A DNA stretch of 64,000 nt, taken from contig JALVVL010000017.1 in NCBI GenBank assembly GCA_027023425.1, forward strand, positions 12,942 through 76,941. The letters are read 5' to 3'. The notes beneath the pieces were generated by a model that was given only the letters and a program-made list of their open reading frames with translations, was not told the DNA's origin and did not search any database. The position numbers and the translations under genes are program-made. Source of the DNA: Anaerolineales bacterium (GTDB taxonomy: Bacteria > Chloroflexota > Anaerolineae > Anaerolineales > DRMV01). Shown piece after piece: positions 15,693-38,996 of the stretch; position 1 is the stretch's first letter, and every line of letters begins with the position of its first letter.

Positions 15693-16838
15693 TCAACGCT
15701 CTTGGGGCGCCTGTGCCGCTTCGGGCGATTTTTGCGACTGTGGCATCTTGCCAACCGCCGGCTCAAGGTCATAAGGCAAGCGCGCCGGTTGTACAACACC
15801 ATATTTGCCCATGATGTACGAGAGCGTAACCGCATCGGTTGAAATTTGAGCATTGTCATCGGCCGCGCGGAGTGCCAATGTGAGTGACACATGGCGGTCA
15901 AGCAAGTACTTCAGCGTCACCGCATCTTGCGGAGAAACGATCAAGGTAACGATGTCAGGCTTATTGCTCACCTGCATCTCCTCGGTGTTTTCCTCTTCCA
16001 CCTGGCCACGCGCCTGCGGAGGAGGTGTAGGGCGCGGCTTCGCTCCGGGCTTGCCGCCGTTGGGTGCCTCTTCTTCTTGCTTTTTCTTCTGCCCAAGCGG
16101 GAATTCACCCACATAAAGCACTGCCGCGTTGGGAATTATCATCTGAGTAACCAAACGCGGGCGCTGGGGCTCAGAAGGAATCAAGTAAAAAGGCACACCC
16201 AATTTCTCATCCTCGGTACCATGGCCAAGATACACGTCGCTGGCCTCAATTCCGGCCGTTAGTGTTTGACCCTTTTCAGAAGTTTGCGGCGGGTAAACCA
16301 CCCCCACCTTGTCGGGCAAAACGCTTTGAAAGTCGGGGTCAACATCCACAAAGGGGAAAGAAGCGATAATAGCCACATGGTCGCCCGGGCGGACAGCGTA
16401 AGCCACGCCGCTAAGCCGATCCATCGGGATAGAAATAGCCACCGAGCCCGGGGCAATCTGCAAAGCGGCCAATGAACCTTCGGAACTAACCGAAAGTTTT
16501 TCCGCCACATCTGCTTTGGTTAGGAACATGCCTTGCGGCAAATCCCGGACGGCGCGCTTGCCTATCACCTGCTTAGGGTTGGTGACTTGCGAAGCGATCA
16601 CCTTGTCCGCAGGCAACTCCACCTCGGTAAGCATATTTTCGGTGATCTTGGTGCCGCGCTTGATGGGCTGAGCCGCAACCACGACTTTCACCGTTTGAAC
16701 TTGCTGAGCCGCCTTCCCACCACCAGAAGCGCCGGCGTTCGGCTTAGGAGCGGCGTTGCGCTTCATCCAAAACACAAGCGCAAGGACAGCAAATAGCAAA
16801 ATCAGAGCCAGCAAAATCAAAACCCGACCTATTTTCAT
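15693..16838 (-). CDS. cpaB: Flp pilus assembly protein CpaB/RcpC-like
   Basis: N-terminal TM followed by a SAF-like segment (VVVAAQPIKRGTKITENML). First gene of the tad block. aggagg RBS. Contains a low-complexity K/E/P-rich insertion. Confidence 0.7.
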   Translation of the reverse strand: MKIGRVLILLALILLFAVLALVFWMKRNAAPKPNAGASGGGKAAQQVQTVKVVVAAQPIKRGTKITENMLTEVELPADKVIASQVTNPKQVIGKRAVRDLPQGMFLTKADVAEKLSVSSEGSLAALQIAPGSVAISIPMDRLSGVAYAVRPGDHVAIIASFPFVDVDPDFQSVLPDKVGVVYPPQTSEKGQTLTAGIEASDVYLGHGTEDEKLGVPFYLIPSEPQRPRLVTQMIIPNAAVLYVGEFPLGQKKKQEEEAPNGGKPGAKPRPTPPPQARGQVEEENTEEMQVSNKPDIVTLIVSPQDAVTLKYLLDRHVSLTLALRAADDNAQISTDAVTLSYIMGKYGVVQPARLPYDLEPAVGKMPQSQKSPEAAQAPQER

Positions 16839-17822: not shown

Positions 17823-20800
17823 TCAACGGCCAAGCACAGTAAAAGCCGCGCCATCGGTGTTGCCGCGCACATCGGGGAAAAACGAATCCCACACCACAGC
17901 AGGGCGCGCCTTGAAAGTGCCCGGCGTGGCGGCGCGAGCGTAGTAAACCACCGTGTAAGTACCAGCGGGTAAGTGCATGGCATGAAATAGCACGTGGTCG
18001 TAGTAAACCTCGCGGTGCCCAAAGAACCAACCACCCCACCCGCAGCAACGGAATTTATCAAGCGAGTAATCTTCCTCATCAGGCAAGTACTCGGGGCGTT
18101 TCCCTGAAAGGGGCTCCAAACCAGCGGGCAGGTAATCCGTCAGCACCACGTTGTCCTCGGAATGAGGCACAACTACCGTGAGCCGAACTTGAACCAAATC
18201 ACCAACCTTGGCGGAAGTGACCGGATTATCAAGATCTGAGACAAGGTAATACGCCCTATCTACGCTGAAACCGGCGTAATGCGCCCTGGCTTCATCTGCC
18301 GGAAGGGTGAGTTCCAAATAAGCGGTGTAATAAAGCACCCCATCTCCCTTGCCGCGCTGAATGTCCAGGGTGGTCAACTTGCCCGCGGGCACACGCTTCT
18401 CATCCCAAGTGAGCACTTTGGGGGTCAAAAGGTCAGCCTGCGCCATGTGACCGCTCGTTGCCGGCTTGCCGCCAAGGAAAACGGCATAATCGTAGTTAGC
18501 CACCCCTTCGTGCGAAAAAGCCGCCCAATCGCTCAAGGTGCGCAAAATCGTTGAATCGCTCAAATCCGAGAGCCTCGGCGAGGAATTGTAGCGCCCGGCC
18601 AGCCACCGCACGGCATTCTGGAGGAACGGAGCGCGCGGGTCGGCCTTCAGCAAAGCATCCACCGCAAGCGCAGTGGCAGTAAGCGGTGAACTCCATCGCG
18701 ACCACCACGCGGCCTCGCCCTTATCCCAGTGAGCGGCAGAGGCGGAAACCGTAACGCTGTTCTCAAGCCGAGCGACTATTGGTTTGGTGAAGTCGGCGCC
18801 CATTTTGGCATTTTCGGCAGCGCGCAAAAGCATAGCCCAATCAGCCGTGTTTACCCTATCCGGCGGGGAATTCTTCATCTTCTTAGCAAGTTCGTAAACG
18901 AACGCCGAAACCGGCCTGCCGGAGCGCGCTAACACGTCTACAATGTAAACCTGGTCATCAAGGCTCAGGTACTTCCTTTGTTGAGGACGCACCAAAACCC
19001 TGCTCAGGTATTCGGCGGGTTGGGTAATTTGCGCCGAATCTACCGGAAAGCCAGCCGCTCGGGCTGCCTGAAGCGCATCAAGCGCATAGGCCGTCGGCAT
19101 AACCTCCGACTGGTCATCATCTACGCACCAACCCCAAGTCCCATCCGAGCGGCGGTAGTTCAGCAACGCCTGAAGGCGCTTCAGAGCATCGTCCTTCACC
19201 GGATCGTTTTTGGCGGCCTGCAAATTCAAAGAGGAACGCATCCGCAGAATAGCGACGTCTTTCAACAAGGCAAAAGCATTATAGGGAATGCACTCGGTTG
19301 GCTCTTCCGGCTTGACGCTAAGTTTGGAAGCCACGCTCGCTATCAACGACGCGGCCAAATTTACCCGCAAAGTGTAATGCTCGCCAGTGGGCGGTTGGAC
19401 GTACTCGCGCGCCGCCCCAACTTTTGGCAAAACTCCCGCAAGCCCGACCGTCTCCACAGTCTTGTAGGCAAAAACAGGTATTCCGCCATCGGGCAAAAGC
19501 GTGAGAACCGGTCGCGAAGCGTCGCGATAGCCATTAGCAACCGCTTGCACCTCCAAGTCCACGCGACGCGACGCAAGCGGCACTTCCACCTGCCAAGAAA
19601 CAACGGCTTGGCCTTTCGGCGGGACTTCCACTTTTTGCGAAAGCGGACTTTTCACCGACAAGCCCTTGGCCTTGCTTAGCGTCACCTCGGCGTTGAGCGG
19701 TTTGTCGGTGGAATTGTGCAACACAGCGCTCAAAGTAGCCTCATCGCCTGCAGTGAAAAACGCCGGGGTATGCAAGCGCACAAAGAACGGAAGCGCAACC
19801 TTCAACTCGGAAATCGCCGAGCCCACGCGGCTATCGGCGGTTATGGCGCGAGCGTGCATTACCCAAGTGGTCATGTTGTCGGGCAAAGTAATGCTAACCT
19901 CGGCCTCGCCTTGCTCATTGGTGCGGAGGTCGGCTTTCCAATAGGCCGTGTCGCGGAAAAGTTCACGCACTGTGATCACGCCGCCTTGGTCGGCGCCTTT
20001 GCCGCCGCCCCCCATACCCGACCCAGTGGGCAAAATGCGCATCGCCTTTAGGTTGTAACTCAGTTCATCTTGAGAAAGCGAAACGGTTGTAACCACCCGC
20101 AAAGCCCGCTCGGAGTACATTTTCTCCAACAAATTGTAGTTGTCGGGTGCAAGGGCGAGCAAGGCTTTATCAACCAATGCAAGCGAAACCTCGGCCGAAA
20201 CCGGCTTACCGGCATAGTCGGTAGTGCGCACTTTGAACTTGACCGTTTCACCCGGGGCGGCTTTCGGCTTTTCGGGCGTCACGGTCACATTCAAACGCTG
20301 GGCTTCCAGAGCAACCGGCAAGCGCAAAACGCCAAGGCGGTAATCGGGCGGCCTCTTGGCATCCCCACCGCTCACCTCAACCACCGAAACATAGGCAACC
20401 GGCGCCATCCACGGCTTTACTGGGAGGTCTACCGTGGTGCTCGGCGAATCAATTTTCAGCAAGCGGTAGGAGTAAATTTTGCCCCGCTCTTCCGTCATCA
20501 AAGCGTAAACGGGCGCGGAGAAGGGGCGCGTGACGACAATATGCGCCACGTCGCCGGGGCGGTAAGAGGCGCGGTCGGGAATCAGTGGCAAAGTTTTGGC
20601 TTCACTCTCACCCCACATCAGTGCCTCGTCGGCGCTCAACACCCAAACGCGCATAACGGCTTTGCGCTCGCGGCCGCTGTCATCGGCGGCGGTGGCAACA
20701 ATGCGGTATGTGCCCGCGTGGTCCGGGGTAAAACTTGCCTCGCCGCGGCCATCGGCGTTTGTGGTGAAATCGCCGAGGTCGGCAACCGGCACAACTTCCA

Positions 20801-23800
20801 GCGAATTTTCCCAGCGCAAAACACCAGAAGCATCCAGCCGCTGGACGCTGTGCCATTTTTCTTCAAACACGTCAAGATGCAGGGCGTGGTCGGCGAGCGG
20901 CTCTCCTTGCGGATTGAGCAACACAAAATCTATCCCAAGAGGTTGGTTGACAATACCAAGCCATGAATTGAGTTTCAGGCCGGGGTAAACATTGCTCACG
21001 CGAGAGACTAAAACCGTGTGTCCGTCAGCAGAGTTGCCGCCGCGGTCGGTAACGGTCGCCCAAACCGAAATCTGCTCGTCGCCGTTCTTGAGTTCCTGTG
21101 GGGCGCTCACCGAAAAGGTGAATTTGCCTTGCGCGTCCGTCTTGCCGGTGCCGTTTTGCGATGGGGCGCTGGCGGTGTGTCGCTCGGGCTCCCAATACCA
21201 CAGCCACGGCACGTCCGGCTCGGCGGAGAAAGTGTAGGCGCGGTAGGCGCGCGGCGGCGAGAAATAGAACGGCAGCGTAATCGCTTTCCACGACACATCG
21301 GCATCGGCAACGGCATCTCCGGCGTAGTAGGAAGCCTGCAACGAAACCTCACTTTTCTGTCCCGGCGCCACATCAGCCGGGTTGGGCATCAGCCTAACTT
21401 CAAAAACCGGCTTGTGGTAATTTGCAACGCGGATGAAGCGCGAGCCAAGCCTGGGCACATATTCGCTTTTGGCAGATTTTTGCTCAGGCAACACGTTCAG
21501 GTAATAACCACCCACCGGCGCAGAATCGGAAAGCAAAAAACTGCCATGAAATGTGCCGAGAGACGAAACGGAAACCGTCTGACGGTCTACAACCTTGCCC
21601 GCGTGGCTGAGCGAAACCACCACACGGGTATCGTGTGGAATGGTGTAGTGCAAATCGGCATCTTGACGCAAAATGCCCTTGAAGAAAATTTGCTGGCCCG
21701 GGCGGTACAGGGGGCGGTCGGTGTAGATGAAAGCCACTTTGGAGGAAGGGTTGGCGCCGCGAACATCCCAAAAAGAAATGCTACCGGGCGCTTGGTTGCG
21801 TGTCCAAGCGGCGCTGGCAATGGCAAAATGCTTCGCATCATGCACGAGAGCAAACAAAGGAGCGGACTCCAAGCCGTCAACCAAGGCCACGCCATCACCG
21901 TTGGTAACGGCTGAGCCACTCAACACCACCACCCTGCCTTCATCTTCGGTATCTTTGAGGGTATAAAAATTGACCTTCAGCCCCCCGACCGGCGCGCCAT
22001 CGCTCAGTCCCGTAGCCCAAGCGAGGGCGTTGGCCGGCGAAGCCTTGAAAGTCAAACTTTCGGTGGAAACGGCAATCTGGTAGTAATCAGTAGGCGAGGA
22101 ATACGCTCGCGCTGGCGACTGGGTTACTCCTAAGCAATAAGCCCCCGGCGCCAGCGAGTGACCAACCACTTTCGCAAGGTCAACCGTGAGGTAATGGAAG
22201 CGGCTATCCTTCTTGTCACTTAGGTCAACCCGCATTGAACCAAGCAATTTGGCATTAGGGTTATATTCAGGGTGGCAGACCTCCCAGTCCGCCAAATTGC
22301 TGAGCAAAGCCTGATCATCAAGCGAATACAGAGTGAAGGTGACAGAATCCAAGTTCGCATACCGCAAGTAGAAAATTTGCGGCTGGTCGGCGTGGAAAAT
22401 GCTCAACTGCCCAAGCAACAACGCATCGGCGCTCGGCTCAAGCGGGGCAGTCCTGAAAGTGAAGGTGATCGGAGCATCGGTTTGGTTTCCGTAAACATCG
22501 GCAATGCCGGGCGCAAAGGTCACGGTGTACTCAGTTGCGGGGTCAAAAATTCCTAAATGAACTTCGCGGCCATAAACCTCGTAAGAAATGCCATGCGTAG
22601 GCTCTGGCTGAACGGTTATGTGACCTTCAAGGCTCTTTTCGTCAATGAAAGTGTTAAATTCCACAAAAACCCAGGGCGAATAAACGTCCGAGGCGGTACT
22701 CGGCGTATCTTCAATCCACGGCTTGCCCACAGTGCGGAATTTGCCGTGCACCGGTTTTAGCAGGGCGCTGCCATCAGCCGCGCGGGCATCGGCGTTGACG
22801 CTGACCGTGTAGGTAGTAGCAAGGTCATAAAATTCGTCGGGCTTCAGAGTAAGAATGCTGTGGCTTGAATCCCATTCAGGCGTAAAGTGGGGCACATTTC
22901 CCCCATTAGGGGCCGTCACAACCACCGCCTTGTAGGCATCAGGATTCATTGGAGCGGAGAAGTAAATTTTTATCGGGGCTTTCAACGGGACATAGCGCGC
23001 CAAACCTCTGAGAATATCATCTCCCGAAACGTCAATTATGTTTACCACAACGCTTTCTGTATGAAAGCGCCAAGAAAAACCTTTAGGGAGCACATCCCCT
23101 TCAACCGTGCGCACCCCAGCAGGCAGGGAAACGAGGTAATCCGAGTTGCTCTTGAGGTGATGAGAAGGATGAAAGACGTAAACCGCGCTGCTAACCCAGC
23201 GGCCGCTTCCTTCAACGCTCGGAGTAATGCGAAGGGGCAACGGCGCCGTCGCCTTGTTCTGGGTCAAAGGCACCACCGGCTTGTTGAATACAATTGTGAT
23301 GTCGGCATTCACCGGCACGTTATCGCTGCCGTCAAGCGGGTAAGCCGCATTGACAGCAAAAGCCCGCGCGGTGACGTAGGTGAGGCTAAGGGGAGAAGCC
23401 AGCGAACCACCGTTTTTTGAACGCAAAGCGGTGGTAAATTCCGCGCGGTACTTAGCGCCATTTGGCTTTAGAGGCGTAGCAGGGGTAAAAACAAAAGTCA
23501 AATCATCGCGCCAACTCACCTTGCCCGGCACCGCTTGCCCTTTGGAATCGACAAAACGCCAAGCGGACTGCAGGCTTGCCCTGTCCAACGGCTGGTTGAA
23601 GGTGAAAGCAAGGGTTGGGCGGATGGGCAGAGCCGCAGCAGGCGCGGGTTCCGCGCGCACCAGCGCGAGCCCGCCTGCTTGGGGGGCAATTCGCGTGAAT
23701 GCAGGCATAGCAGTCGCTGTGGCGTGGGCTGCTGTCGGAGAAAGCACGCCGTTAACCGTTTTCCCCAACGATAGAGCGCAAGCAGTTAACGCAAGAGCAA

Positions 23801-23837
23801 AGAAAAAAATGAACAACCCTAAAAAAGACTTTCTCAT
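17823..23837 (-). CDS. alpha-2-macroglobulin family lipoprotein (thioester-less)
   Basis: Signal peptide with lipobox LALTAC, starting from ATG 23837 (gggagg RBS). N-terminal Ig-like modules and long MG-domain-like repeats. A TED-like region follows (LLNYRRSDGTWGWC, alpha/alpha-toroid type). The thioester position reads CIPY (19281-19292) rather than CxEQ. Confidence 0.85.
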   Translation of the reverse strand: MRKSFLGLFIFFFALALTACALSLGKTVNGVLSPTAAHATATAMPAFTRIAPQAGGLALVRAEPAPAAALPIRPTLAFTFNQPLDRASLQSAWRFVDSKGQAVPGKVSWRDDLTFVFTPATPLKPNGAKYRAEFTTALRSKNGGSLASPLSLTYVTARAFAVNAAYPLDGSDNVPVNADITIVFNKPVVPLTQNKATAPLPLRITPSVEGSGRWVSSAVYVFHPSHHLKSNSDYLVSLPAGVRTVEGDVLPKGFSWRFHTESVVVNIIDVSGDDILRGLARYVPLKAPIKIYFSAPMNPDAYKAVVVTAPNGGNVPHFTPEWDSSHSILTLKPDEFYDLATTYTVSVNADARAADGSALLKPVHGKFRTVGKPWIEDTPSTASDVYSPWVFVEFNTFIDEKSLEGHITVQPEPTHGISYEVYGREVHLGIFDPATEYTVTFAPGIADVYGNQTDAPITFTFRTAPLEPSADALLLGQLSIFHADQPQIFYLRYANLDSVTFTLYSLDDQALLSNLADWEVCHPEYNPNAKLLGSMRVDLSDKKDSRFHYLTVDLAKVVGHSLAPGAYCLGVTQSPARAYSSPTDYYQIAVSTESLTFKASPANALAWATGLSDGAPVGGLKVNFYTLKDTEDEGRVVVLSGSAVTNGDGVALVDGLESAPLFALVHDAKHFAIASAAWTRNQAPGSISFWDVRGANPSSKVAFIYTDRPLYRPGQQIFFKGILRQDADLHYTIPHDTRVVVSLSHAGKVVDRQTVSVSSLGTFHGSFLLSDSAPVGGYYLNVLPEQKSAKSEYVPRLGSRFIRVANYHKPVFEVRLMPNPADVAPGQKSEVSLQASYYAGDAVADADVSWKAITLPFYFSPPRAYRAYTFSAEPDVPWLWYWEPERHTASAPSQNGTGKTDAQGKFTFSVSAPQELKNGDEQISVWATVTDRGGNSADGHTVLVSRVSNVYPGLKLNSWLGIVNQPLGIDFVLLNPQGEPLADHALHLDVFEEKWHSVQRLDASGVLRWENSLEVVPVADLGDFTTNADGRGEASFTPDHAGTYRIVATAADDSGRERKAVMRVWVLSADEALMWGESEAKTLPLIPDRASYRPGDVAHIVVTRPFSAPVYALMTEERGKIYSYRLLKIDSPSTTVDLPVKPWMAPVAYVSVVEVSGGDAKRPPDYRLGVLRLPVALEAQRLNVTVTPEKPKAAPGETVKFKVRTTDYAGKPVSAEVSLALVDKALLALAPDNYNLLEKMYSERALRVVTTVSLSQDELSYNLKAMRILPTGSGMGGGGKGADQGGVITVRELFRDTAYWKADLRTNEQGEAEVSITLPDNMTTWVMHARAITADSRVGSAISELKVALPFFVRLHTPAFFTAGDEATLSAVLHNSTDKPLNAEVTLSKAKGLSVKSPLSQKVEVPPKGQAVVSWQVEVPLASRRVDLEVQAVANGYRDASRPVLTLLPDGGIPVFAYKTVETVGLAGVLPKVGAAREYVQPPTGEHYTLRVNLAASLIASVASKLSVKPEEPTECIPYNAFALLKDVAILRMRSSLNLQAAKNDPVKDDALKRLQALLNYRRSDGTWGWCVDDDQSEVMPTAYALDALQAARAAGFPVDSAQITQPAEYLSRVLVRPQQRKYLSLDDQVYIVDVLARSGRPVSAFVYELAKKMKNSPPDRVNTADWAMLLRAAENAKMGADFTKPIVARLENSVTVSASAAHWDKGEAAWWSRWSSPLTATALAVDALLKADPRAPFLQNAVRWLAGRYNSSPRLSDLSDSTILRTLSDWAAFSHEGVANYDYAVFLGGKPATSGHMAQADLLTPKVLTWDEKRVPAGKLTTLDIQRGKGDGVLYYTAYLELTLPADEARAHYAGFSVDRAYYLVSDLDNPVTSAKVGDLVQVRLTVVVPHSEDNVVLTDYLPAGLEPLSGKRPEYLPDEEDYSLDKFRCCGWGGWFFGHREVYYDHVLFHAMHLPAGTYTVVYYARAATPGTFKARPAVVWDSFFPDVRGNTDGAAFTVLGR

Positions 23838-23946
23838 CTTGGCCTCCCAGAGACATTGCAAAGTGAACAAACGTCACTTTGCCACAAAGCGTAAATAAAC
23901 ACAAAGATATCGCTAACGATATTGTACTCCAAATTCCAACCTGCAG

Positions 23947-30536: not shown

Positions 30537-33464
30537 CTACCGCACCGCCACCAGCACCGCCCGCACCATCCGGCGGAAGGGATAGTCTCCCGTGGCCGGG
30601 TCGTAGCCCTCACAAGTCACTAAGGTCAGAACATCATACTTTTCATGCTTCAACAGCATGTGGTGCGCCGCCCAACTTCGCGCCGATAAGCGCTTGTTCT
30701 CCCGCACTTCGTACACATACACCCGACCCCAGGCGTGGATTTCAATCCGGTCGCCATAGCGCAGGTCTTTGAGGTGCAGGAACGGCCCCGGGGTATTGTC
30801 CGCGTTCCACACATGCGCCGTCAGCACCGTGTTCCCGGCCCAAGTGGGGAAGGCCGTACCTTCCAACCAGCCCACTGCATTACCCAACCACGACACATCC
30901 CAGCCATTTTCCGTCAGGGGCACGCCCACGATGGGCAGGCCAAGCCCCAAGGATGGAATCGTCAGCCGCATGTCCATCCCAGCATAGGCTTTAGTGGCCG
31001 GCTGCTGCGGCAAAGTCGTGACCACCCCGCGCGGGAAACCGGTTTTAGGCGGCGCGGGATGTTGCACCACAAAATCATAGATGCTGTCATGGCCGCCGTT
31101 GAGGTGGTTGCCTACAAGATCAGTGATGGACGTAGTGCCGCACACGAAGAGGCGATAGGTGCCGTCAGGCAGGGGCACACCGTTGTTGATATGCGCCGTG
31201 GCCGTGAAGGTGGCGCTGTCGTAGGTCACGCTGTTCACGGTGATTCGGGTATCGTCGGCCTGCACACCGCCTGCGCAGGAGACGGTATCAAAAGCATCGT
31301 TCTTCCCCCGTTCCACCAGCAGGTAGTTGGCCGGATTGGTCACATCGTTGGGGCCGGTGTTGCCCGGCGGGTCATTCACGGCCTCGCTGAAATGCACTTG
31401 GAACGAAGTGAAACCTTGGGTGTAAGCAGAAGTTACAGGGGGACTGACAACTGTGGGCCCAGCCGCATCGTAAGTAACCGTATTGTCGGTGCTGGTGCTG
31501 GCATTGTTGGGGTTGCCGTCCCAATCAGCCACGCGGTTGGCCGCAATGGAAGCCGTCACGGTGCCCGCACCGCTCATACCGCTGACGGCGATATCAAAAG
31601 TCGTATGGTCATAAGGGCTAATCTCGGTAACAGTCGCCGAAAGTGTACCCGAGACTGTACCGCCCAAAGTAACATCAGAGGCATCAAAGGTTGCCGGATC
31701 CACAAAGGGAGTAAATACCGCTGTGAAATGGATGGGGCCTACGTTGGTCGGGTCGGGTTGAGTGGCGGCCTGATTCACGGTCACAGTAAGGGGTGCACGA
31801 CGCACTTCATAAGCCCCAATGTCGCAATGGCTGCCCTGGGGGCGGGCCACGCCGCGCTGGTCGGTGGACGGGCATTCATTGTCCGCCCCGGCGTCTATGG
31901 CGGGAGAGCCAGATTTGAGCGGAAAGACTTGCCGTCCAGGGCCTCCAAAGTCGGTGAGCGCACCTAATTGAGGGTCTTTGCCAATGATGTTGCCGTTGAC
32001 ACCGTCAGTTAAGCCGCAAGCGTGGGCACTGTCCTCAATCAGATTATGGCTTGAAGTATCAGCAATAGCGCTATTAGGGCCGAAGTTGACACAATCTCCA
32101 CCAGAACCGCTGTTGGCGATAATAACATTGATGAGCACTGGCTTGCTTTGGCCGGAGTTGTACATCCCATCACCATCACCACCGTGGGCCGAATTGTTAG
32201 AGAAGGTGACGTTTGTCAATACAGGGCTGCTGTCAAAATTTTCGATACCCCCACCATAATCATAGGCTGAATTACCAAAAAACGTGACGTTCGTCAGTCT
32301 GGGGTTGCTCTTGTAGTTGGAGAGCCCGCCTCCGCTGCCGAATAGTAAGAAATCAGTAAAGAAGCCAACCGCCGCATTGTGCATGAAGGTTACGTTCGTT
32401 AAAACAGGGCTACCCTCAACGCTAAGCATCCCACCACCAAAAGCGGCAGAATTCCCGGAGAAGGTCACATCTGTCAGTGTAAGGCTGCCGCCGTAATTGG
32501 AAATCCCGCCCCCATCACCATCGCCATAAACCGAATTTCCGGAGAAAGTCACATTTTTTAGGGTAAGGTTACTGCCGCCACTGGCTATTCCGCCGCCGTC
32601 ATAGAGGGCGTCATTATTGGAAAAGATAACATTTGTCAATTGAGGGCTTCCCCCACCGATGATCATCCCGCCGCCCGCCTCCTCGGCCTCGTTGCGGGAA
32701 AAGGTAACTTCCGTCAAAATAGGACTGCCCTCCTCTTCATACATCCCGCCGCCATCAAGGTAGGCGTGGTTATCAGAGAAAGTCACATGCGTAAGTTTAT
32801 GGCTACTGTAAACGCTGAAGATTCCGGCGCCATCGTAGGCCAAATTGCCAGAGAAGGTGACGTTCCGCAGCGTAAGGCTGCTGTGCTCGCTGTGTAGCCC
32901 GCCGCCCTCGCGTTTGGGGGAATAAAAATCTTCATCATTAGCCTGTCCCGCGGTGATAGTGAAGCCGTCCAGCACGGCGCCGTTGTTCACATGGATAGCG
33001 GTAAGGACATGATAAGCGTTGTTCCCAGCGAGGTCCAGAATGCTGGTGACCACACCGTGGGCATCGGTGGTGTCATTTTGGTCAATGTCCCCGCTGAGGA
33101 CAGTGATGTTGTGCTCTGGGTCGCGCTGGTCGCGGGCGGTTTCCGTGCCCGCGAAGCCGCCGTAAAGCGCCACCCCGTTCTTGAGCCGGAAGGTGCTGTT
33201 GCGGTCATCATTCGTCTGCCCGGCGCCTTCGTCCGGGTAGTACACGCCGGCTGCCACCCAAATTTCGGTGCAGCCGGCGTCGGCCAGCGCGTCCTGCAAG
33301 GTGGTGTAGGCATCGGCCCAACTGGTACCGTTGTTGGCACCGGTAGCGTCGGCCTTCACATAACAAATCGGCCCGGCCGCGCGCACCGCCGGTGCGGGCA
33401 ACAGGGCCAAGATGACGCTCAACACGAGCGCCGCACGGATCAGGCGTTGGAAAAAGGTTTGCAT
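30537..33464 (-). CDS. secreted parallel-beta-helix (Pmp/PbH1-like) protein with Ig-like modules and a C-terminal sortase domain, paralogue 1
   Basis: Signal peptide from MQTFFQRLIRAALVLSVILALLPAPAVRAAG. About 10 units of the L(T/K)NVTFSGNSA..GGG type, then DQRGVARPQGSHCDIGAYE. C-terminal His (VLTAH), Cys (TLVTC, 30612-30614) and Arg (PFRRMV), with sortase-like spacing of 67 and 13 aa. PPKTGF lies at 31035-31052. Confidence 0.8.
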   Translation of the reverse strand: MQTFFQRLIRAALVLSVILALLPAPAVRAAGPICYVKADATGANNGTSWADAYTTLQDALADAGCTEIWVAAGVYYPDEGAGQTNDDRNSTFRLKNGVALYGGFAGTETARDQRDPEHNITVLSGDIDQNDTTDAHGVVTSILDLAGNNAYHVLTAIHVNNGAVLDGFTITAGQANDEDFYSPKREGGGLHSEHSSLTLRNVTFSGNLAYDGAGIFSVYSSHKLTHVTFSDNHAYLDGGGMYEEEGSPILTEVTFSRNEAEEAGGGMIIGGGSPQLTNVIFSNNDALYDGGGIASGGSNLTLKNVTFSGNSVYGDGDGGGISNYGGSLTLTDVTFSGNSAAFGGGMLSVEGSPVLTNVTFMHNAAVGFFTDFLLFGSGGGLSNYKSNPRLTNVTFFGNSAYDYGGGIENFDSSPVLTNVTFSNNSAHGGDGDGMYNSGQSKPVLINVIIANSGSGGDCVNFGPNSAIADTSSHNLIEDSAHACGLTDGVNGNIIGKDPQLGALTDFGGPGRQVFPLKSGSPAIDAGADNECPSTDQRGVARPQGSHCDIGAYEVRRAPLTVTVNQAATQPDPTNVGPIHFTAVFTPFVDPATFDASDVTLGGTVSGTLSATVTEISPYDHTTFDIAVSGMSGAGTVTASIAANRVADWDGNPNNASTSTDNTVTYDAAGPTVVSPPVTSAYTQGFTSFQVHFSEAVNDPPGNTGPNDVTNPANYLLVERGKNDAFDTVSCAGGVQADDTRITVNSVTYDSATFTATAHINNGVPLPDGTYRLFVCGTTSITDLVGNHLNGGHDSIYDFVVQHPAPPKTGFPRGVVTTLPQQPATKAYAGMDMRLTIPSLGLGLPIVGVPLTENGWDVSWLGNAVGWLEGTAFPTWAGNTVLTAHVWNADNTPGPFLHLKDLRYGDRIEIHAWGRVYVYEVRENKRLSARSWAAHHMLLKHEKYDVLTLVTCEGYDPATGDYPFRRMVRAVLVAVR

Positions 33465-33524
33465 AGCAGCCCCCGATAAGGCATCCTGCTTCCCCCGCGG
33501 GTGCTTCGGCAAAGCCTCAGCACC

Positions 33525-33561
33525 GCGCCCCGCTCTCTCCCCTTGGGAGAGAGCGGGGCGC
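33525..33561. repeat. perfect GC-rich hairpin related to the family-D core
   Basis: gcgccccgctctctcccc / ttgg / gagagagcggggcgc. It lies between the two paralogues, 120 nt downstream of paralogue 2, in the 5' region of paralogue 1. No U-tract follows it. Confidence 0.6.
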
Positions 33562-33683
33562 AGCCGCCGAGCATGAGCGATGCGGCGGGGGATAAGTAAA
33601 GGTGTTCAGACATAACAGCGCTACTTTCATCGTCAACCGATTTTTTCTTCTTCAAACAGTGTTCTCAACGGCGGGCCAAGGGA

Positions 33684-36587
33684 CTACCGCACCGCCACCA
33701 GCACCGCCCGCACCATCCGGCGGAAGGGGTAGTCTCCCGTGGCCGGGTCGTAGCCCTCGCAGGTCACTAAGGTCAGAACATCATACTTTTCATGCTTCAA
33801 CAGCATGTGGTGCGCCGCCCAACTTCGTGCCGGTAAGCGCTTGTTCTCCCGCACTTCGTACACATACACCCGGCCCCAGGCGTGGATTTCAATCCGGTCG
33901 CCATAGTGCAGGTCTTTGAGGTGCAGGAACGGCCCCGGGGTATTGTCCGCGTTCCACACATGCGCCGTCAGCACCGTGTTCCCGGCCCAAGTGGGGAAGG
34001 CCGTACCTTCCAACCAGCCCACTGCATTACCCAACCACGACACATCCCAGCCATTTTCCGTCAGGGGCACGCCCACGATGGGCAGGCCAAGCCCCAAGGA
34101 TGGAATCGTCAGCCGCATGTCCATCCCAGCATAGGCTTTAGTGGCCGGCTGCTGCGGCAAAGTCGTGACCACCCCGCGCGGGAAACCGGTTTTAGGCGGC
34201 GCGGGATGTTGCACCACAAAGTCATAGATGCTGTCATGGCCGCCGTTGAGGTGGTTGCCCACAAGATCAGTGATGGACGTAGTGCCGCACACGAAGAGGC
34301 GATAGGTGCCGTCAGGCAGGGGCACACCGTTGTTGATGTGCACCGTGGCCGTGAAAGTGGCGCTGTCGTAGGTCACGCTGTTCACGGGGATTCGGGTGTC
34401 GTCGGCCTGCACACCGCCTGCGCAGGAGACGGTATCAAAAGCATCGTTCTTCCCCCGTTCCACCAGCAGGTAGTTGGCCGGGTTGGTCACATCGTTGGGA
34501 TCGGTGTTACCGGGCGGGTCATTCACGGCCTCGCTGAAATGCACTTGGAACGAAGTGAAACCTTGGGTGTAAGCAGAAGTTACAGGGGGACTGACAACTG
34601 TAGGCCCAGCAGCATCGTAAGTAACCGTATTGTCGGTGCTGGTGCTGGCATTGTTGGGGTTGCCGTCCCAATCAGCCACGCGGTTGGCCGCAATGGAAGC
34701 CGTCACGGTGCCCGCACCGCTCATACCGCTGATGGCGATATCAAAAGTCGTATGGTCATAAGGGCTAATCTCGGTAACAGTCGCCGAAAGTGTACCCGAG
34801 ACTGTACCGCCCAAAGTAACATCAGAGGCTTCAAAGGTTGCCGGATCCACAAAGGGGGTAAATACCGCTGTGAAATGGATGGGGCCTACGTTGGTCGGGT
34901 CGGGTTGAGTGGCGGCCTGATTCACGGTCACAGTAAGGGGTGCACGACGCACTTCATAAGCCCCAATGTCGCAATGGCTGCCCTGGGGGCGGGCCACGCC
35001 GCGCTGGTCGGTGGACGGGCATTCATTGTCCGCCCCGGCGTCTATGGCGGGAGAGCCAGATTTGAGGGGAAAGACTTGCCGTCCAGGGCCTCCAAAGTCG
35101 GTGAGCGCACCTAATTGAGGGTCTTTGCCAATGATGTTGCCGTTGACACCGTCAGTCAGACCGCAGGCATGGGCACTGTCTTCAATCAAGTTGTGGCCTG
35201 AATTCGTGGAGATCGTGGCATTAGAGTCATTGGCGCAATCCCCGCCGGAAGGACTGTTCGCGATGATAACGTTGGTCAGTACGGGAGTGCTGTTGCCCCC
35301 ATTGAAGATCCCACCGCCGTTATTAGCTGAATTATCAGAGAATGTCACGTTAGTTAATACAGGACTGCTGTCGTAATTACCACTATAGGTGTAGAATCCA
35401 CCGCCATTACCATACGCCGAATTGCCAGAAAAGGTGACGTTCTTCAATATAGGACTTCTGTGATAACTATAGTTGTAAATTCCTCCTCCATCTTCGTAAA
35501 GAGCCGAATTGTCAGAAAAAGTGACATTTATGAGAAATAGCCCGCCATCATTGTTAAACAAGCCACCACCCCCATAATACGCCGAGTTATTCGTGAAAAT
35601 AACCTCCCTCAATGTGGGGTTACCCCAAAAGTTGTACATCCCCCCGCCATCAGTGATCTCAGCCGAATTGCCGGAGAAAGAAACGCCTATCAGTATAGGA
35701 TTGCCAGAGTCATTATACATCCCACCCCCTTCATAAGCCAAATTATCTGAGAAGGTCACATTCGTCAGCTTAAGACTACTTTCAATACTATACACCCCAC
35801 CACCAGCGCCGTTATGAGCAGAGTTGCTCCCAAAAGTAACGTCTACCAGCGTAGGATTACCACCCCAAATGTACATTCCCCCACCGCTGCGGTTAGCTGA
35901 ATTATTAGAGAAAGTAATGTGTGTTAACGTGGGAGTGCCATTATTATTGTATATCCCACCCCCATCATAAGCCAAGTTGCCGGCAAAGGTAACATCCCGC
36001 AGTGTAGGGTCGCTGCGATTGTTGTACATCCCGCCACCCACGCTATTGGGATAATTTCCATTGGCCTGTCCGGCGGTAATAATGACACCGTCTAGGATAG
36101 TGCCGCTGTATGCCCCGCTGCCGGTGACCACATGGTAAGCGTTACCCCCACTGATGTTGTTGGTGTCAACGACCACACCGTGGGCATCGGTGGTGTCATT
36201 TTGGTCAATGTCCCCGCTGAGGACGGTGATGTTGTGCTCTGGGTCGCGCTGGTCGCGGGCGGTTTCCGTGCCCGCAAAGCCACCGTAAAGTGCCACGCCG
36301 TTCTTGAGCCGGAAGGTGCTGTTGCGGTCGTCGTTCGTCTGCCCTGCGCCTTCATCCGGGTAGTACACGCCGGCTGCCACCCAGATTTCGGTGCAGCCGG
36401 CGTCGGCCAGTGCGTCCTGCAAGGTGGTGTAGGCGTCGGCCCAACTGGTGCCGTTGTTGGCACCGGTAGCGTCGACCTTCACGTAACAAATTGGCCCGGC
36501 CGCGCGCGCCGCGGGCGCGGGCAACAGGGCTAAGATGACGCTCAACACGAGCGCCGCACGGATCAGGCGTTGGAAGAAAGTGTTCAT
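33684..36587 (-). CDS. secreted parallel-beta-helix protein with C-terminal sortase domain, paralogue 2
   Basis: Same architecture as 30537-33464, starting at MNTFFQRLIRAALVL (ATG 36587). The last ~495 aa differ from paralogue 1 at only 7 positions. PPKTGF lies at 34182-34199 and the TLVTC Cys codon at 33759-33761. Confidence 0.8.
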   Translation of the reverse strand: MNTFFQRLIRAALVLSVILALLPAPAARAAGPICYVKVDATGANNGTSWADAYTTLQDALADAGCTEIWVAAGVYYPDEGAGQTNDDRNSTFRLKNGVALYGGFAGTETARDQRDPEHNITVLSGDIDQNDTTDAHGVVVDTNNISGGNAYHVVTGSGAYSGTILDGVIITAGQANGNYPNSVGGGMYNNRSDPTLRDVTFAGNLAYDGGGIYNNNGTPTLTHITFSNNSANRSGGGMYIWGGNPTLVDVTFGSNSAHNGAGGGVYSIESSLKLTNVTFSDNLAYEGGGMYNDSGNPILIGVSFSGNSAEITDGGGMYNFWGNPTLREVIFTNNSAYYGGGGLFNNDGGLFLINVTFSDNSALYEDGGGIYNYSYHRSPILKNVTFSGNSAYGNGGGFYTYSGNYDSSPVLTNVTFSDNSANNGGGIFNGGNSTPVLTNVIIANSPSGGDCANDSNATISTNSGHNLIEDSAHACGLTDGVNGNIIGKDPQLGALTDFGGPGRQVFPLKSGSPAIDAGADNECPSTDQRGVARPQGSHCDIGAYEVRRAPLTVTVNQAATQPDPTNVGPIHFTAVFTPFVDPATFEASDVTLGGTVSGTLSATVTEISPYDHTTFDIAISGMSGAGTVTASIAANRVADWDGNPNNASTSTDNTVTYDAAGPTVVSPPVTSAYTQGFTSFQVHFSEAVNDPPGNTDPNDVTNPANYLLVERGKNDAFDTVSCAGGVQADDTRIPVNSVTYDSATFTATVHINNGVPLPDGTYRLFVCGTTSITDLVGNHLNGGHDSIYDFVVQHPAPPKTGFPRGVVTTLPQQPATKAYAGMDMRLTIPSLGLGLPIVGVPLTENGWDVSWLGNAVGWLEGTAFPTWAGNTVLTAHVWNADNTPGPFLHLKDLHYGDRIEIHAWGRVYVYEVRENKRLPARSWAAHHMLLKHEKYDVLTLVTCEGYDPATGDYPFRRMVRAVLVAVR

Positions 36588-36681
36588 GGCTGCCCCCAGC
36601 GGAATCCTCCGAAAGTGTTCTTTGAGACGGGCTATGTAAAAATTATACCGCAAAAACGGCGCCCCATTGCGACTTTCAGAA

Positions 36682-36722: not shown

Positions 36723-37649
36723 ATGCCCCAGAGTGCGCCTCCCTCTAAAGAACCATTGGCTCCATACCTTCCTGCCATCACCCAGAGGGTATTCTCACCC
36801 GTGTCACCGCCGTTGAAGTGGGCTGGGGGGAAAGCGGCTTTGCTCCCGCAAATGCGAAAGCACTTTCCCGAAGTTTTTGGGCGTTACCATGAGCCGTTTC
36901 TTGGAGGCGGGGCAGTATTTTTTTATTTATCCCCGCAACGCGGCGCTAAGGCTTTTCTCTCTGACCTCAACGAAGAACTCATCAATTTTTACCTTGTGCT
37001 TCGTGAGCAGGTGGATGATTTACTCAAGGAAGTGCGGGCATTGCACGAAACTTACCTCCGGCTTGGCGAAACAGAACGCGAGAAATTGTATTATGAATGG
37101 CGCAACGCCGACCGCACTCCGGAATTCAAAAAATGGTCTCCCTTGCGGCGGGCAGTTAGGTTTTATTTCCTCAACAAAACCGCCTTCAACGGTCTTTATC
37201 GTATCAACCGACAAGGCTTGTTCAATGTACCGTGGGGTGGATACAAACGCCCCGCGCTTTACCGCCCACAATTGTTGCGCGATGCCGCGGCTGTTTTGCG
37301 AAAGTTTGCCGTTTTTCTAAAAGCCACATCGTTTGAAATTGTGTTGGACAACGCCCAAAGCGGCGATTTTGTCTATTTTGACCCTCCCTATGCGCCTGTA
37401 TCAGCGACGGCATCCTTCACCACCTACACTTCAGGCGGTTTTGGAGAGGCAGAACAACGGCATCTGGCGAGCGTATGCCACGAGTTAGACCGCCGCGGCG
37501 TCATGTTTTTGCTTTCCAACAGCGATTTGCCGTGGGTGCGAGCGCTCTACACGGGCTTTGCTGTATTCACCGTGCAGGCTCGCCGCAATATCAACAGCAA
37601 AGGCGACAAACGGGGCCCGGTCAATGAAATTCTCGTGCGCAATTACTGA
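36723..37649 (+). CDS. Dam-family (alpha-class, D12) N6-adenine DNA methyltransferase
   Basis: N-terminal LKWAGGKAALLPQM, motif I EPFLGGGAVFF, and catalytic DPPY (37380-37391). Confidence 0.85.
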   Translation: MPQSAPPSKEPLAPYLPAITQRVFSPVSPPLKWAGGKAALLPQMRKHFPEVFGRYHEPFLGGGAVFFYLSPQRGAKAFLSDLNEELINFYLVLREQVDDLLKEVRALHETYLRLGETEREKLYYEWRNADRTPEFKKWSPLRRAVRFYFLNKTAFNGLYRINRQGLFNVPWGGYKRPALYRPQLLRDAAAVLRKFAVFLKATSFEIVLDNAQSGDFVYFDPPYAPVSATASFTTYTSGGFGEAEQRHLASVCHELDRRGVMFLLSNSDLPWVRALYTGFAVFTVQARRNINSKGDKRGPVNEILVRNY

Positions 37650-37664
37650 AACAGGAGCATCGCA

Positions 37665-38996
37665 ATGACCCAACGCGACAAAGCATGGGAAGCCATTTTT
37701 GAGGGGGAGCACATTCCACAAACGCTGGAGAAGCAAGGCTGGGCAACGATCACGACAGAGGTCATCCGCAAAAAGTATCACAAAGAACCACGGCTTTTAG
37801 CAAAAACCGATGCCTATGAGGCGCTTCCCGAAGTGTTCCGCAAAAACGACGCGGCGCTGCTTTCGCTGACTAATGAAGAGTATGCCATCCTCCGCTTAGG
37901 GAACAAAGGCAAACCTCTTTTTCCGAAACTGCCGCCTGTGATTGGCAGGCCGACGCATATACTCATTGAAGATTGCGCTCGGCGTATCGTGACCCTGCCG
38001 TGGGAGGAACATTTCACCAGCGAGTCTCAAGCCATTGATGCCGCACTGGCGGCACACATTTTACAGAATTTTGTGGGCGACGAAAGACTTGTGCTCACTA
38101 TACGGGGGCGAAGGTGGTTTCAGAAATCCTTGCCTCTGCGTTTCTCACTCAAAGGCAGGGTGACCGAGTTTCCTTTGAAAGCGCGCGGTTTCCAAATAGA
38201 GGTGGACGGGGGCTATGAGTCTCCCCGCCATGTGTACCTTCTGGAAGCCAAAAACAAAGCCCACAAAACTTTCAACTTGCGACAGGTAATGTTTCCCTAC
38301 CTATTTTGGAAAGATTATCTACGCGGGCGAAATACCACTAAAACCGTCCGTCCCATTTACATGGTTTACACCGCGCACAATTATTTCCTCTACGAATTCA
38401 CCGTAGAAAAAGAAGATGTGCTCAACTCGCTTCATGTTGTGCGCGCAGGATGGTATGTGCTTGGTGCACCGCCGCTAACCTTAGCCTACATTAGAGAAAT
38501 AGTGCAAACTCACACACCGGCAGATGTTCGGAATGTTCCGTTTCCTCAGGCCGACTCGTTCCTGCGGCTGTATGATATTTTGGAGGAAGTCAAACGCAAA
38601 GGTGCGCTCACTGCAAACGAGATTGCCGAACACCAAGAGTTTACCCTGCGTCAGGGCAACTATTATGCCTCGGCAGCGCGATGGCTTGGCTGGCTGGGAA
38701 AACGGGGAAACGCTTTCGTAATCAGCAAGGATGGCAAGAGGCTTTTGGCCTCTGCCCTCAACGAAAGGCCAAGGCTGATTTTGCAACGGCTGGCACAGCG
38801 CCCGGTTTTCCACGAGGCGCTGCAGTGGTGGGCAACCACTGCCAAATTGCCCACAAAGGGGCAAATTGAACAATGGATTGTTCAAGCCATTGAGAGCAAA
38901 CAGATCAAAGCGCTATCCCAAAGCACCATTCCGCGTCGGGCGAGCACCGTCGCCGGATGGCTCCAAATCCTTGCCGCATGGGTGCGAACACCATGA
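37665..38996 (+). CDS. putative restriction endonuclease (PD-(D/E)xK core) with C-terminal helix-rich, wHTH-like region
   Basis: Motif FQIEVD(181)GGY...12 aa...LLE(194)AK(196) at 38205-38252. It starts 16 nt after the methylase stop with an acaggagc RBS. I recognise no family, so the call rests on the motif plus its position next to the methylase. Confidence 0.5.
   Translation: MTQRDKAWEAIFEGEHIPQTLEKQGWATITTEVIRKKYHKEPRLLAKTDAYEALPEVFRKNDAALLSLTNEEYAILRLGNKGKPLFPKLPPVIGRPTHILIEDCARRIVTLPWEEHFTSESQAIDAALAAHILQNFVGDERLVLTIRGRRWFQKSLPLRFSLKGRVTEFPLKARGFQIEVDGGYESPRHVYLLEAKNKAHKTFNLRQVMFPYLFWKDYLRGRNTTKTVRPIYMVYTAHNYFLYEFTVEKEDVLNSLHVVRAGWYVLGAPPLTLAYIREIVQTHTPADVRNVPFPQADSFLRLYDILEEVKRKGALTANEIAEHQEFTLRQGNYYASAARWLGWLGKRGNAFVISKDGKRLLASALNERPRLILQRLAQRPVFHEALQWWATTAKLPTKGQIEQWIVQAIESKQIKALSQSTIPRRASTVAGWLQILAAWVRTP

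Follow-up and report, generated by a model that had tools for sequence, protein, structure and literature searches.

Two Secreted Proteins End in a Sorting Motif and a Sortase

The window analysed here is a stretch of 64,000 nucleotides from contig JALVVL010000017.1 of an Anaerolineales bacterium (Chloroflexota; assembly GCA_027023425.1). Its minus strand carries two tandem open reading frames (ORFs), referred to as gene A and gene B, whose products share one architecture, that of a secreted beta-helix protein ending in a sortase domain, with a sorting motif of the LPXTG type just upstream of the enzyme. The likely starts are ATG at 33464 for gene A (975 aa) and ATG at 36587 for gene B (967 aa), and the longest readings begin at TTG, at 33512 (gene A, 991 aa) and 36653 (gene B, 989 aa); residue numbers follow the 991-aa reading of gene A unless stated otherwise. 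Sequences identical to both the 975-aa and the 967-aa proteins are already contained in a public protein collection. An earlier interpretation made from the letters of the window alone, called the sequence-only reading below, had placed a complete sortase where a surface protein would have its sorting signal. ORFs, Pfam and NCBIfam profiles and the predicted fold confirm the two proteins, their common architecture and their C-terminal enzyme, and it is indeed the hydrophobic helix and basic tail of a sorting signal that the enzyme replaces. The LPXTG-type motif, however, is kept, and the earlier remark that the window shows no LPXTG substrate was mistaken, as both proteins carry PPKTGF, their version of the LPxTGF motif of the family described below.

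Judged by profile, predicted fold and catalytic triad, the C-terminal domain of the window proteins belongs to the sortase superfamily. The Pfam model Sortase (PF04203, peptidase C60) matches each C-terminus from position 1 to 125 of 125, with 65.5 and 64.0 bits against a gathering threshold of 26.6 (E-values 4.9e-18 and 1.5e-17). An AlphaFold2 model of residues 801–991, which has the eight-stranded beta-barrel fold of sortases, shows a mean predicted local distance difference test score (pLDDT) of 88.6 and a predicted template modelling score of 0.83, and its comparison with the PDB by Foldseek gave 133 matches at E ≤ 1e-3; the 50 PDB matches listed are all sortases, with template modelling scores of 0.55–0.80 on the target. 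Class C sortases lead the order of fold matches (3e-11), followed by classes E and A, and a sequence-profile search of the PDB agrees. Within the domain, the catalytic Cys, part of a TLxTC motif, lies 67 aa past the His and the Arg 13 aa past the Cys. Among database homologues the triad is retained throughout (His 122/122, Cys 120/120, Arg 120/120), and it is intact in all 145 representatives at 50% identity. On triad and model together, the domain looks catalytically competent. The sequence-only reading fares well at this point: the profile scan and the fold search that it had suggested for the C-terminus both return sortases, the former at full length and above the cut-off, the latter with a best E of 3.4e-11, and the triad, whose conservation it had named beforehand as a point that could refute it, is invariant in at least 120 homologues. 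Its codons for the His and Cys of gene A and its distance of 67 aa between them were correct, and the Arg, expected 13–14 aa after the Cys, is found at 13.

The class models of NCBIfam (A–F, GN) score 18–42 bits against cut-offs of 140–166, with class F on top (42 vs. 166) and class_C_sortase at 40.8 vs. 160, and by these profiles the window domain falls in none of the curated sortase classes. The stretch from the catalytic Cys to the Arg contains another xPxTG-like string, DPATGD (30594–30611 and 33741–33758, minus strand); relatives often read NPFTGD or NPLTGN, and its conservation is moderate (P 48/121, T 58/121, G 61/120).

In both window proteins, PPKTGF stands about 25 residues ahead of the first strand of the sortase domain. 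Three sets of relatives show how strictly this arrangement is kept. In 120 database homologues of the last 209 residues, the motif columns hold L in 90/118 (I in 11), P in 117/118, T in 114/118, G in 117/118 and F in 115/118. In 78 genomic loci taken from species-representative genomes, with 86 sortase copies, [LIVM]PxTGF lies 70–74 residues upstream of the signature GN[TS]V.T[GA]H in 85 copies. An independent search covered 1.84 billion 50%-identity representatives, and the cassette is carried by 147 of the best 148, which were inspected for it. Among 145 representatives, motif position 1 is L in 115, I in 16, V in 6, N in 5 and S, M or A in one each; Phe follows the motif Gly directly in 144/145, and the distance from the motif Thr to the catalytic His is 74–78 residues in 143/145. 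Since an LPXTG-type motif is kept at a fixed distance, the fused sortase replaces only the hydrophobic helix and the basic tail, and since the motif is kept upstream of the sortase, enzyme and substrate are found in one chain. We read the arrangement as a self-contained sorting cassette rather than as an enzyme in an odd place.

The position of the motif can be related to a known structural feature of class C sortases, which have a DP[F/W/Y] lid and a C-terminal transmembrane domain (PMC3493515). In group B Streptococcus SrtC1 and SrtC2, the Asp-Pro-aromatic element of the lid is found 71–73 residues ahead of the catalytic His, and the class C lid superposes on the SrtA-bound LPAT peptide, functioning as a pseudo-substrate (PMC3493515). 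In the fused family, the Pro of LPxTG lies 78–79 residues before the His and a conserved x-P-G about 72 before it, and when profiles are aligned, the family's P-x-T-G-F-x-P-G falls on the lid sequence S-N-P-G-L-D-P-F of the E. faecalis Ebp class C sortase. By these alignments, the substrate motif of the family would sit only a few residues from the position of the pseudo-substrate lid in the related enzymes.

Architecture of the Window Proteins

The features of both proteins are collected in Table 1. The N-terminus of the gene A product is predicted to be a Sec signal peptide (MQTFFQRLIRAALVLSVILALLPAPAVRA) with likely cleavage after VRA, and homologues have equivalent N-termini. No later segment is hydrophobic, as the 19-aa hydropathy reaches at most 1.38 vs. 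2.16 for the signal peptide, in keeping with the sequence-only reading, which had seen no transmembrane segment there. That reading had also described beta-helix units of about 23 aa; PMP-type repeats are present, but their period is longer (Table 1). Models for the POMP repeat, Chlam_PMP and Beta_helix (Pfam, NCBIfam) match both proteins, as does the NCBIfam choice-of-anchor Q model NF041518 (84.1 and 83.2 bits vs. a cut-off of 25), a domain defined, as the model name indicates, by its co-occurrence with varied anchors. Pfam found no autotransporter domain in either protein; PMP repeats are present, and a sortase occupies the C-terminus. Of the two Ig-like modules proposed earlier, the second (residues 691–815) is confidently predicted as a beta-sandwich. 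This pre-motif module has a conserved consensus, NYLL...SC...YRLFVCGTTS, and occurs in most members of the family. Nine cysteines are found per protein, a number consistent with four disulfide pairs and a free catalytic Cys. The sortase domain of gene A extends to the last residue of the protein, which lies 11 residues past the catalytic Arg.

Table 1. Features of genes A and B in the window (positions in window coordinates).
Feature	Positions	Strand	Basis or remark
Gene A, secreted 975-aa protein with C-terminal motif and sortase cassette	30537..33464	-	stop codon included
A: predicted Sec signal peptide	33378..33464	-	hydropathy 2.16, AxA-type site
A: beta-helix core, PMP-type repeats of ~25-27 aa	32055..33047	-	Pfam Beta_helix, Chlam_PMP, TIGR01376; repeat spacing
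A: choice-of-anchor Q domain	31803..31976	-	NF041518, 84 bits vs. cut-off 25
A: first beta-rich module, without Pfam match	31443..31802	-	sequence only; similar modules recur in the L040 protein
A: pre-motif beta-sandwich module with conserved Cys pair	31068..31442	-	AlphaFold2 pLDDT 87-97, all-beta
A: sorting motif PPKTGF, predicted scissile bond T/G	31035..31052	-	atypical variant of [L/I/V]-P-x-T-G-F
A: conserved 23-aa linker (x-P-G-x-V-T-x-L-P-x-Q-P-A-x-K-A-Y...)	30966..31034	-	column conservation; stands where class C sortases have their lid and N-terminal extension (HMM alignment, lid geometry in PMC3493515)
A: sortase catalytic domain	30540..30965	-	His 30813-30815, Cys 30612-30614, Arg 30573-30575
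A: pre-Cys loop insertion, residues ~950-952	30654-30665	-	3 columns in larger homologue alignment
Gene B, 967-aa tandem paralogue, architecture as gene A	33684..36587	-
B: sorting motif PPKTGF	34182..34199	-
B: conserved linker	34113..34181	-
B: sortase catalytic domain	33687..34112	-	His 33960-33962, Cys 33759-33761, Arg 33720-33722

Mosaic History of the Window Paralogues

The two window genes have diverged unevenly along their length. In ATG-start numbering, the synonymous divergence (dS) between A and B is 0.24 over residues 1–140, about 2.1 and thus saturated in the beta-helix core (141–470), 0.10 over 471–800 and 0.04 over 801–975, and the similarity ends at the stop codon. This mosaic suggests gene conversion of the ends or an exchange of the beta-helix core. 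The ratio of non-synonymous to synonymous divergence (dN/dS) is 0.08–0.16 throughout and 0.13 in the cassette, where two non-synonymous differences are found in 175 codons; by this measure both genes are under purifying selection. The PPKTGF form of the motif is seen beyond the window only in a 91%-identical relative (L001), and a 72%-identical one (L002) has LPKTGF. The loop that precedes the catalytic Cys carries an insertion of 2 residues with the same distribution, present in the window proteins and L001 only and absent from L002. We take this loop to be equivalent to the beta6/beta7 specificity loop of SrtA. The shared distribution is suggestive of motif and enzyme having changed together in the PPKTGF lineage, although this amounts to one event only.

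A Family with Diverse Passengers

How widely the fusion occurs, a survey that the sequence-only reading had proposed, was assessed with a profile of 291 positions that spans the pre-motif module, motif, linker and sortase. At E ≤ 1e-30 it retrieves at least 1,524 protein clusters (50% identity), and at least 595 loci in GTDB species-representative genomes encode a relative. The best 80 of these at least 595 loci come without exception from Anaerolineales, Anaerolineae or Chloroflexota, among them the cultured Ornatilinea apprima P3M-1; within the top slice of loci, 13 of 60 assemblies contribute two to four loci each, and eight loci hold two copies. One homologue (P0075) bears the NCBI label 'Candidatus Bathyarchaeota archaeon', all other members being from Chloroflexota, and this label probably reflects a mis-binned contig. 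In databases the homologues are named 'sortase', 'LPXTG-site transpeptidase family protein' or 'hypothetical'.

The proteins among the best 150 profile hits range from 301 to 2,735 aa, and in all but one of them the best-scoring match ends about 20 residues or less from the C-terminus. The exception, P0127, is a protein of 1,215 aa with eight copies of the pre-motif beta-sandwich module and neither terminal motif nor sortase, so that the pre-motif module evidently exists outside the cassette too. Complete family ORFs have a signal-peptide-like start and no later hydrophobic segment of transmembrane grade. Among 53 complete members scanned, PF04203 is matched in all and PMP repeats are found in 18; the remaining passenger domains include other Ig-like domains, Listeria-Bacteroides repeats, beta-propellers, GEVED, lamin-tail and DUF11 domains, phosphatase/nuclease domains and a proprotein-convertase P-domain, and no pilin-type domains were detected in these 53. 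With passengers as varied as these, all of surface or secreted type, the cassette resembles in its behaviour a C-terminal sorting module that is portable between proteins.

How little such a module requires can be seen in the smallest complete member, L029 (274 aa), which consists of a signal/anchor segment, about 70 Gly-rich residues, LPATGF, linker and sortase. Because this protein contains little else, the irreducible unit is motif plus linker plus sortase; the pre-motif module, absent here, is common yet not obligatory. The N-terminal hydrophobic segment of L029 (9686–10507, plus strand) measures about 23 residues, long enough for an uncleaved membrane anchor, and L029 may be an anchored, stand-alone-like form of the enzyme with LPATGF still in its stalk.

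No stand-alone (motif-less) sortase was found in the 1.19 Mb made up by the 78 loci and the window, a sample too small to speak for whole genomes, and the same sequence holds one convincing classical sorting signal. It consists of LPNTGF, a transmembrane helix and RRLRSAPAR and belongs to a 180-aa protein in L040 (14281–14823, minus strand), in which it follows an N-terminal transmembrane segment and a low-complexity spacer; a sortase-fused protein of 2,892 aa is encoded 3.7 kb upstream of it. Conventional substrates thus coexist with fused ones and have the same LPxTGF signature.

Other Genes in the Window

Promoter and terminator scans gave no signal above background. Directly upstream of gene B, at 36723–38996 on the plus strand, lies a Dam-type N6-adenine methyltransferase gene followed at once by one for a 443-aa DUF6996/DUF6997/DUF7226 protein, possibly a restriction-modification pair. 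A 2,015-aa bacterial alpha-2-macroglobulin is encoded at 17823–23870 on the minus strand (Big_5 x4, MG2, A2M_BRD, A2M, bMG10); it has a lipoprotein-like signal (LALTAC) and lacks the CxEQ thioester motif. At 15693–16838, also on the minus strand, lies a gene for a Flp/Tad pilus assembly protein of the RcpC/CpaB type, which contains a SAF domain, and a Tad-type pilus locus may be present upstream, at about 4–16 kb.

Proposed Mechanism and Alternative Explanations

On balance, we favour the view that the fused sortase cleaves its own LPxT/GF and transfers the passenger to an amine of the cell envelope, the cassette serving as a single-turnover module. After Sec export and removal of the signal peptide, the linker, being of fixed length, would hold the motif at the class C lid position, from which it would enter the active site of the same chain. 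The Cys would then attack the Thr-Gly bond, giving a passenger-Thr thioester on a sortase domain that is now a separate molecule. An amine of the cell envelope, for example on a peptidoglycan stem peptide or another surface polymer, would resolve the thioester, leaving the passenger covalently attached and the sortase domain, which would now begin with GF, to be discarded. One enzyme molecule would be spent per substrate molecule. We infer the cleavage itself, its action in cis rather than in trans and the nature of the acceptor. Coupling in cis is argued for by the fixed spacing and the conserved linker, which an intramolecular fit would lead one to expect and a substrate acting in trans would not require, and equally by the near-invariant motif and its equivalence to the lid position, by the lack of a membrane anchor through which enzyme and substrate could meet, and by the supply of one enzyme per passenger across many paralogues. 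That the system amounts to a natural 'autosortase', in which single-chain, single-turnover ligation dispenses both with a membrane-anchored sortase and with retention of the substrate in the membrane, is a more tentative step, which we would call nearly, but not quite, probable.

Several observations weigh against self-processing in general or in the window copies. AlphaFold2 does not place the motif in the active site with confidence, the pLDDT for motif and linker being 72–78 and 63–72 in two models. Pro at motif position 1 occurs in 0/145 representatives, and for the window copies, with Pro instead of Leu, the efficiency of processing is uncertain. Covariation between motif position 1 and the sortase was sought family-wide in 313 non-identical cassettes, and the strongest candidate, column 953 in the pre-Cys loop (z ~26), proved by nearest-neighbour and cluster analysis to reflect mostly clade structure; it is not used as support. 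Finally, the conventional substrate in L040 means that a trans-acting sortase activity of the same LPxTGF specificity probably exists as well.

One alternative is that LPxTGF is an uncleaved pseudo-substrate lid and that the proteins are giant secreted or surface sortases, targeted by their N-terminal domains and acting in trans on substrates with LPxTGF, transmembrane helix and tail. The motif does stand at the class C lid position, a conventional substrate is present in a related genome, and the minimal L029, whose stalk contains the motif, otherwise resembles a common anchored sortase. We nonetheless regard this as unlikely: known lids are of the DP[FWY] type and not a complete, cleavable LPxTG (PMC3493515), and the conservation of four specificity positions and the Phe at 97–99% would be hard to explain for a mimic that has to stay uncut. 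Moreover, for a housekeeping activity it would be strange to be supplied by several enzyme copies per genome with unrelated passengers, and there is no membrane anchor to hold the enzyme beside membrane-embedded substrates. If, instead, a separate housekeeping sortase cuts the motif, the fused domain would be freed as a soluble enzyme with a different role or would merely replace the transmembrane helix and tail in retaining the protein. Such an enzyme gains some credit from the same L040 substrate, which implies that some trans-acting activity exists, but the invariant triad and the fixed spacing of motif and domain point to functional coupling, and the absence of a stand-alone sortase from the 1.19 Mb adds weak evidence in the same direction; we give this account less credence still.

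Polymerisation, in which the fused sortase would link the Thr to an amine of a second family member, either a Lys or its mature N-terminus, and so assemble covalent fibres or a layer (surface or sheath) much as class C sortases assemble pili, seems about as improbable as the lid account. It would suit the kinship, by fold and profile, with the pilus-polymerising class C sortases, as well as the several, often tandem paralogues per genome; Anaerolineae are, in addition, filamentous. Yet neither the cassette nor the pre-motif module has an invariant Lys (the best, K841, is found in 67/119), the passengers, which include enzymes, are too heterogeneous to fit a regular polymer well, and the 53 scanned members are devoid of detectable pilin-type domains. 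Decay of the window copies, whereby the change from L to P at motif position 1 would abolish processing and leave the cassette a non-functional relic, draws on the confinement of this Pro to the window and L001. It is very improbable, and is rejected as the main explanation because the window copies are under purifying selection, which is strong on the cassette in both. Their triad is also intact, other family members are found with I, V, N, S, A and M at position 1, which is thus a tolerant site, and the pre-Cys loop insertion of the lineage may accommodate the Pro.

Should the self-processing account be correct, substrate and enzyme sharing one chain would be a third way to use sortase chemistry. 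An autosortase would be a latent thioester-forming enzyme that is used once, attaching proteins to the envelope of a little-understood monoderm phylum or to other amine-bearing targets, and would be the main route of surface display in Anaerolineae and the natural counterpart of engineered cis-sortase ligation tags. The arrangement would also bear on how class C lids arose, and it would open up the little-known surface biology of the Anaerolineae, abundant inhabitants of sediments, digesters and wastewater, and explain why motif predictors see few sortase substrates there. A cassette of about 170 residues could, furthermore, yield compact, possibly calcium-independent, self-ligating tags for protein engineering.

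Comparison with Known Systems

Sortase biology has been a two-component picture, in which a membrane-anchored enzyme acts on other proteins, its substrates, whose sorting signal keeps them in the membrane. The full-text literature searched, from which most subscription journals are absent, describes neither a natural LPXTG-sortase fusion nor an Anaerolineae sortase, which agrees with the sequence-only reading, whose author knew of no characterised precedent. Neither the chemistry nor any of the parts is unfamiliar; their combination in a single chain, free of an anchor and with the motif where the lid would be, is not known and appears to be new.

The nearest solved relatives are class C sortases, namely A. 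oris SrtC1 (2xwg), S. pneumoniae SrtC (2w1j/2w1k) and E. faecalis Ebp SrtC (24rr). The likeness is seen in the Foldseek match (3e-11), in the sequence profile (1.6e-15), in the His/Cys/Arg triad common to both, and in an N-terminal extension by which a segment containing Pro, some 72 residues ahead of the His, is placed at the active site. The fused family differs in lacking the DP[FWY] lid, LPxTGF-x-P-G occupying the aligned segment instead, in having no N- or C-terminal membrane anchor adjoining the sortase domain, and in carrying a large passenger on the enzyme. Linkage to pilins, a hallmark of class C, is not seen either, as the neighbouring genes are unrelated and the 53 members have no pilin domains.

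With the canonical tripartite signal (LPXTG, hydrophobic helix and basic tail, recognised by a separate membrane sortase), the cassette shares a portable LPxTG element in diverse secreted proteins. Its family consensus matches the LPXTG pentapeptide, and the window copies read PPKTG; what follows, however, is a 23-aa polar linker and a sortase rather than a hydrophobic helix and a basic tail. Standard substrate predictors scan the last 50 residues for the motif (PMC12617251). They would miss the fused proteins because the motif lies about 170 residues from the C-terminus.

Modular C-terminal elements on varied passengers are likewise known from autotransporter beta-domains, the C-terminal domains of the type IX secretion system and PEP-CTERM/exosortase. 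These modules are recognised by or inserted into separate machinery, and none contains a transpeptidase. Chlamydial Pmp autotransporters have the PMP repeats in common with the window proteins, but their C-terminal beta-barrel is not found in the latter.

Engineered parallels are self-cleaving sortase tags and STEPL, the latter a man-made system that reportedly uses S. aureus SrtA and a flexible Gly-Ser linker, in the order passenger, LPXTG, linker, sortase; cleavage reportedly takes place in cis, and the passenger is transferred to an added amine nucleophile. By this design, the order passenger, motif, linker and sortase can work in cis. According to a later paper that cites it, STEPL (Warden-Rothman et al., 2013, as cited in PMC11237011) has triglycine elute proteins from the fused sortase. 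Compared with this design, the natural family stands apart in that its motif and enzyme are joined by a conserved, structured linker.

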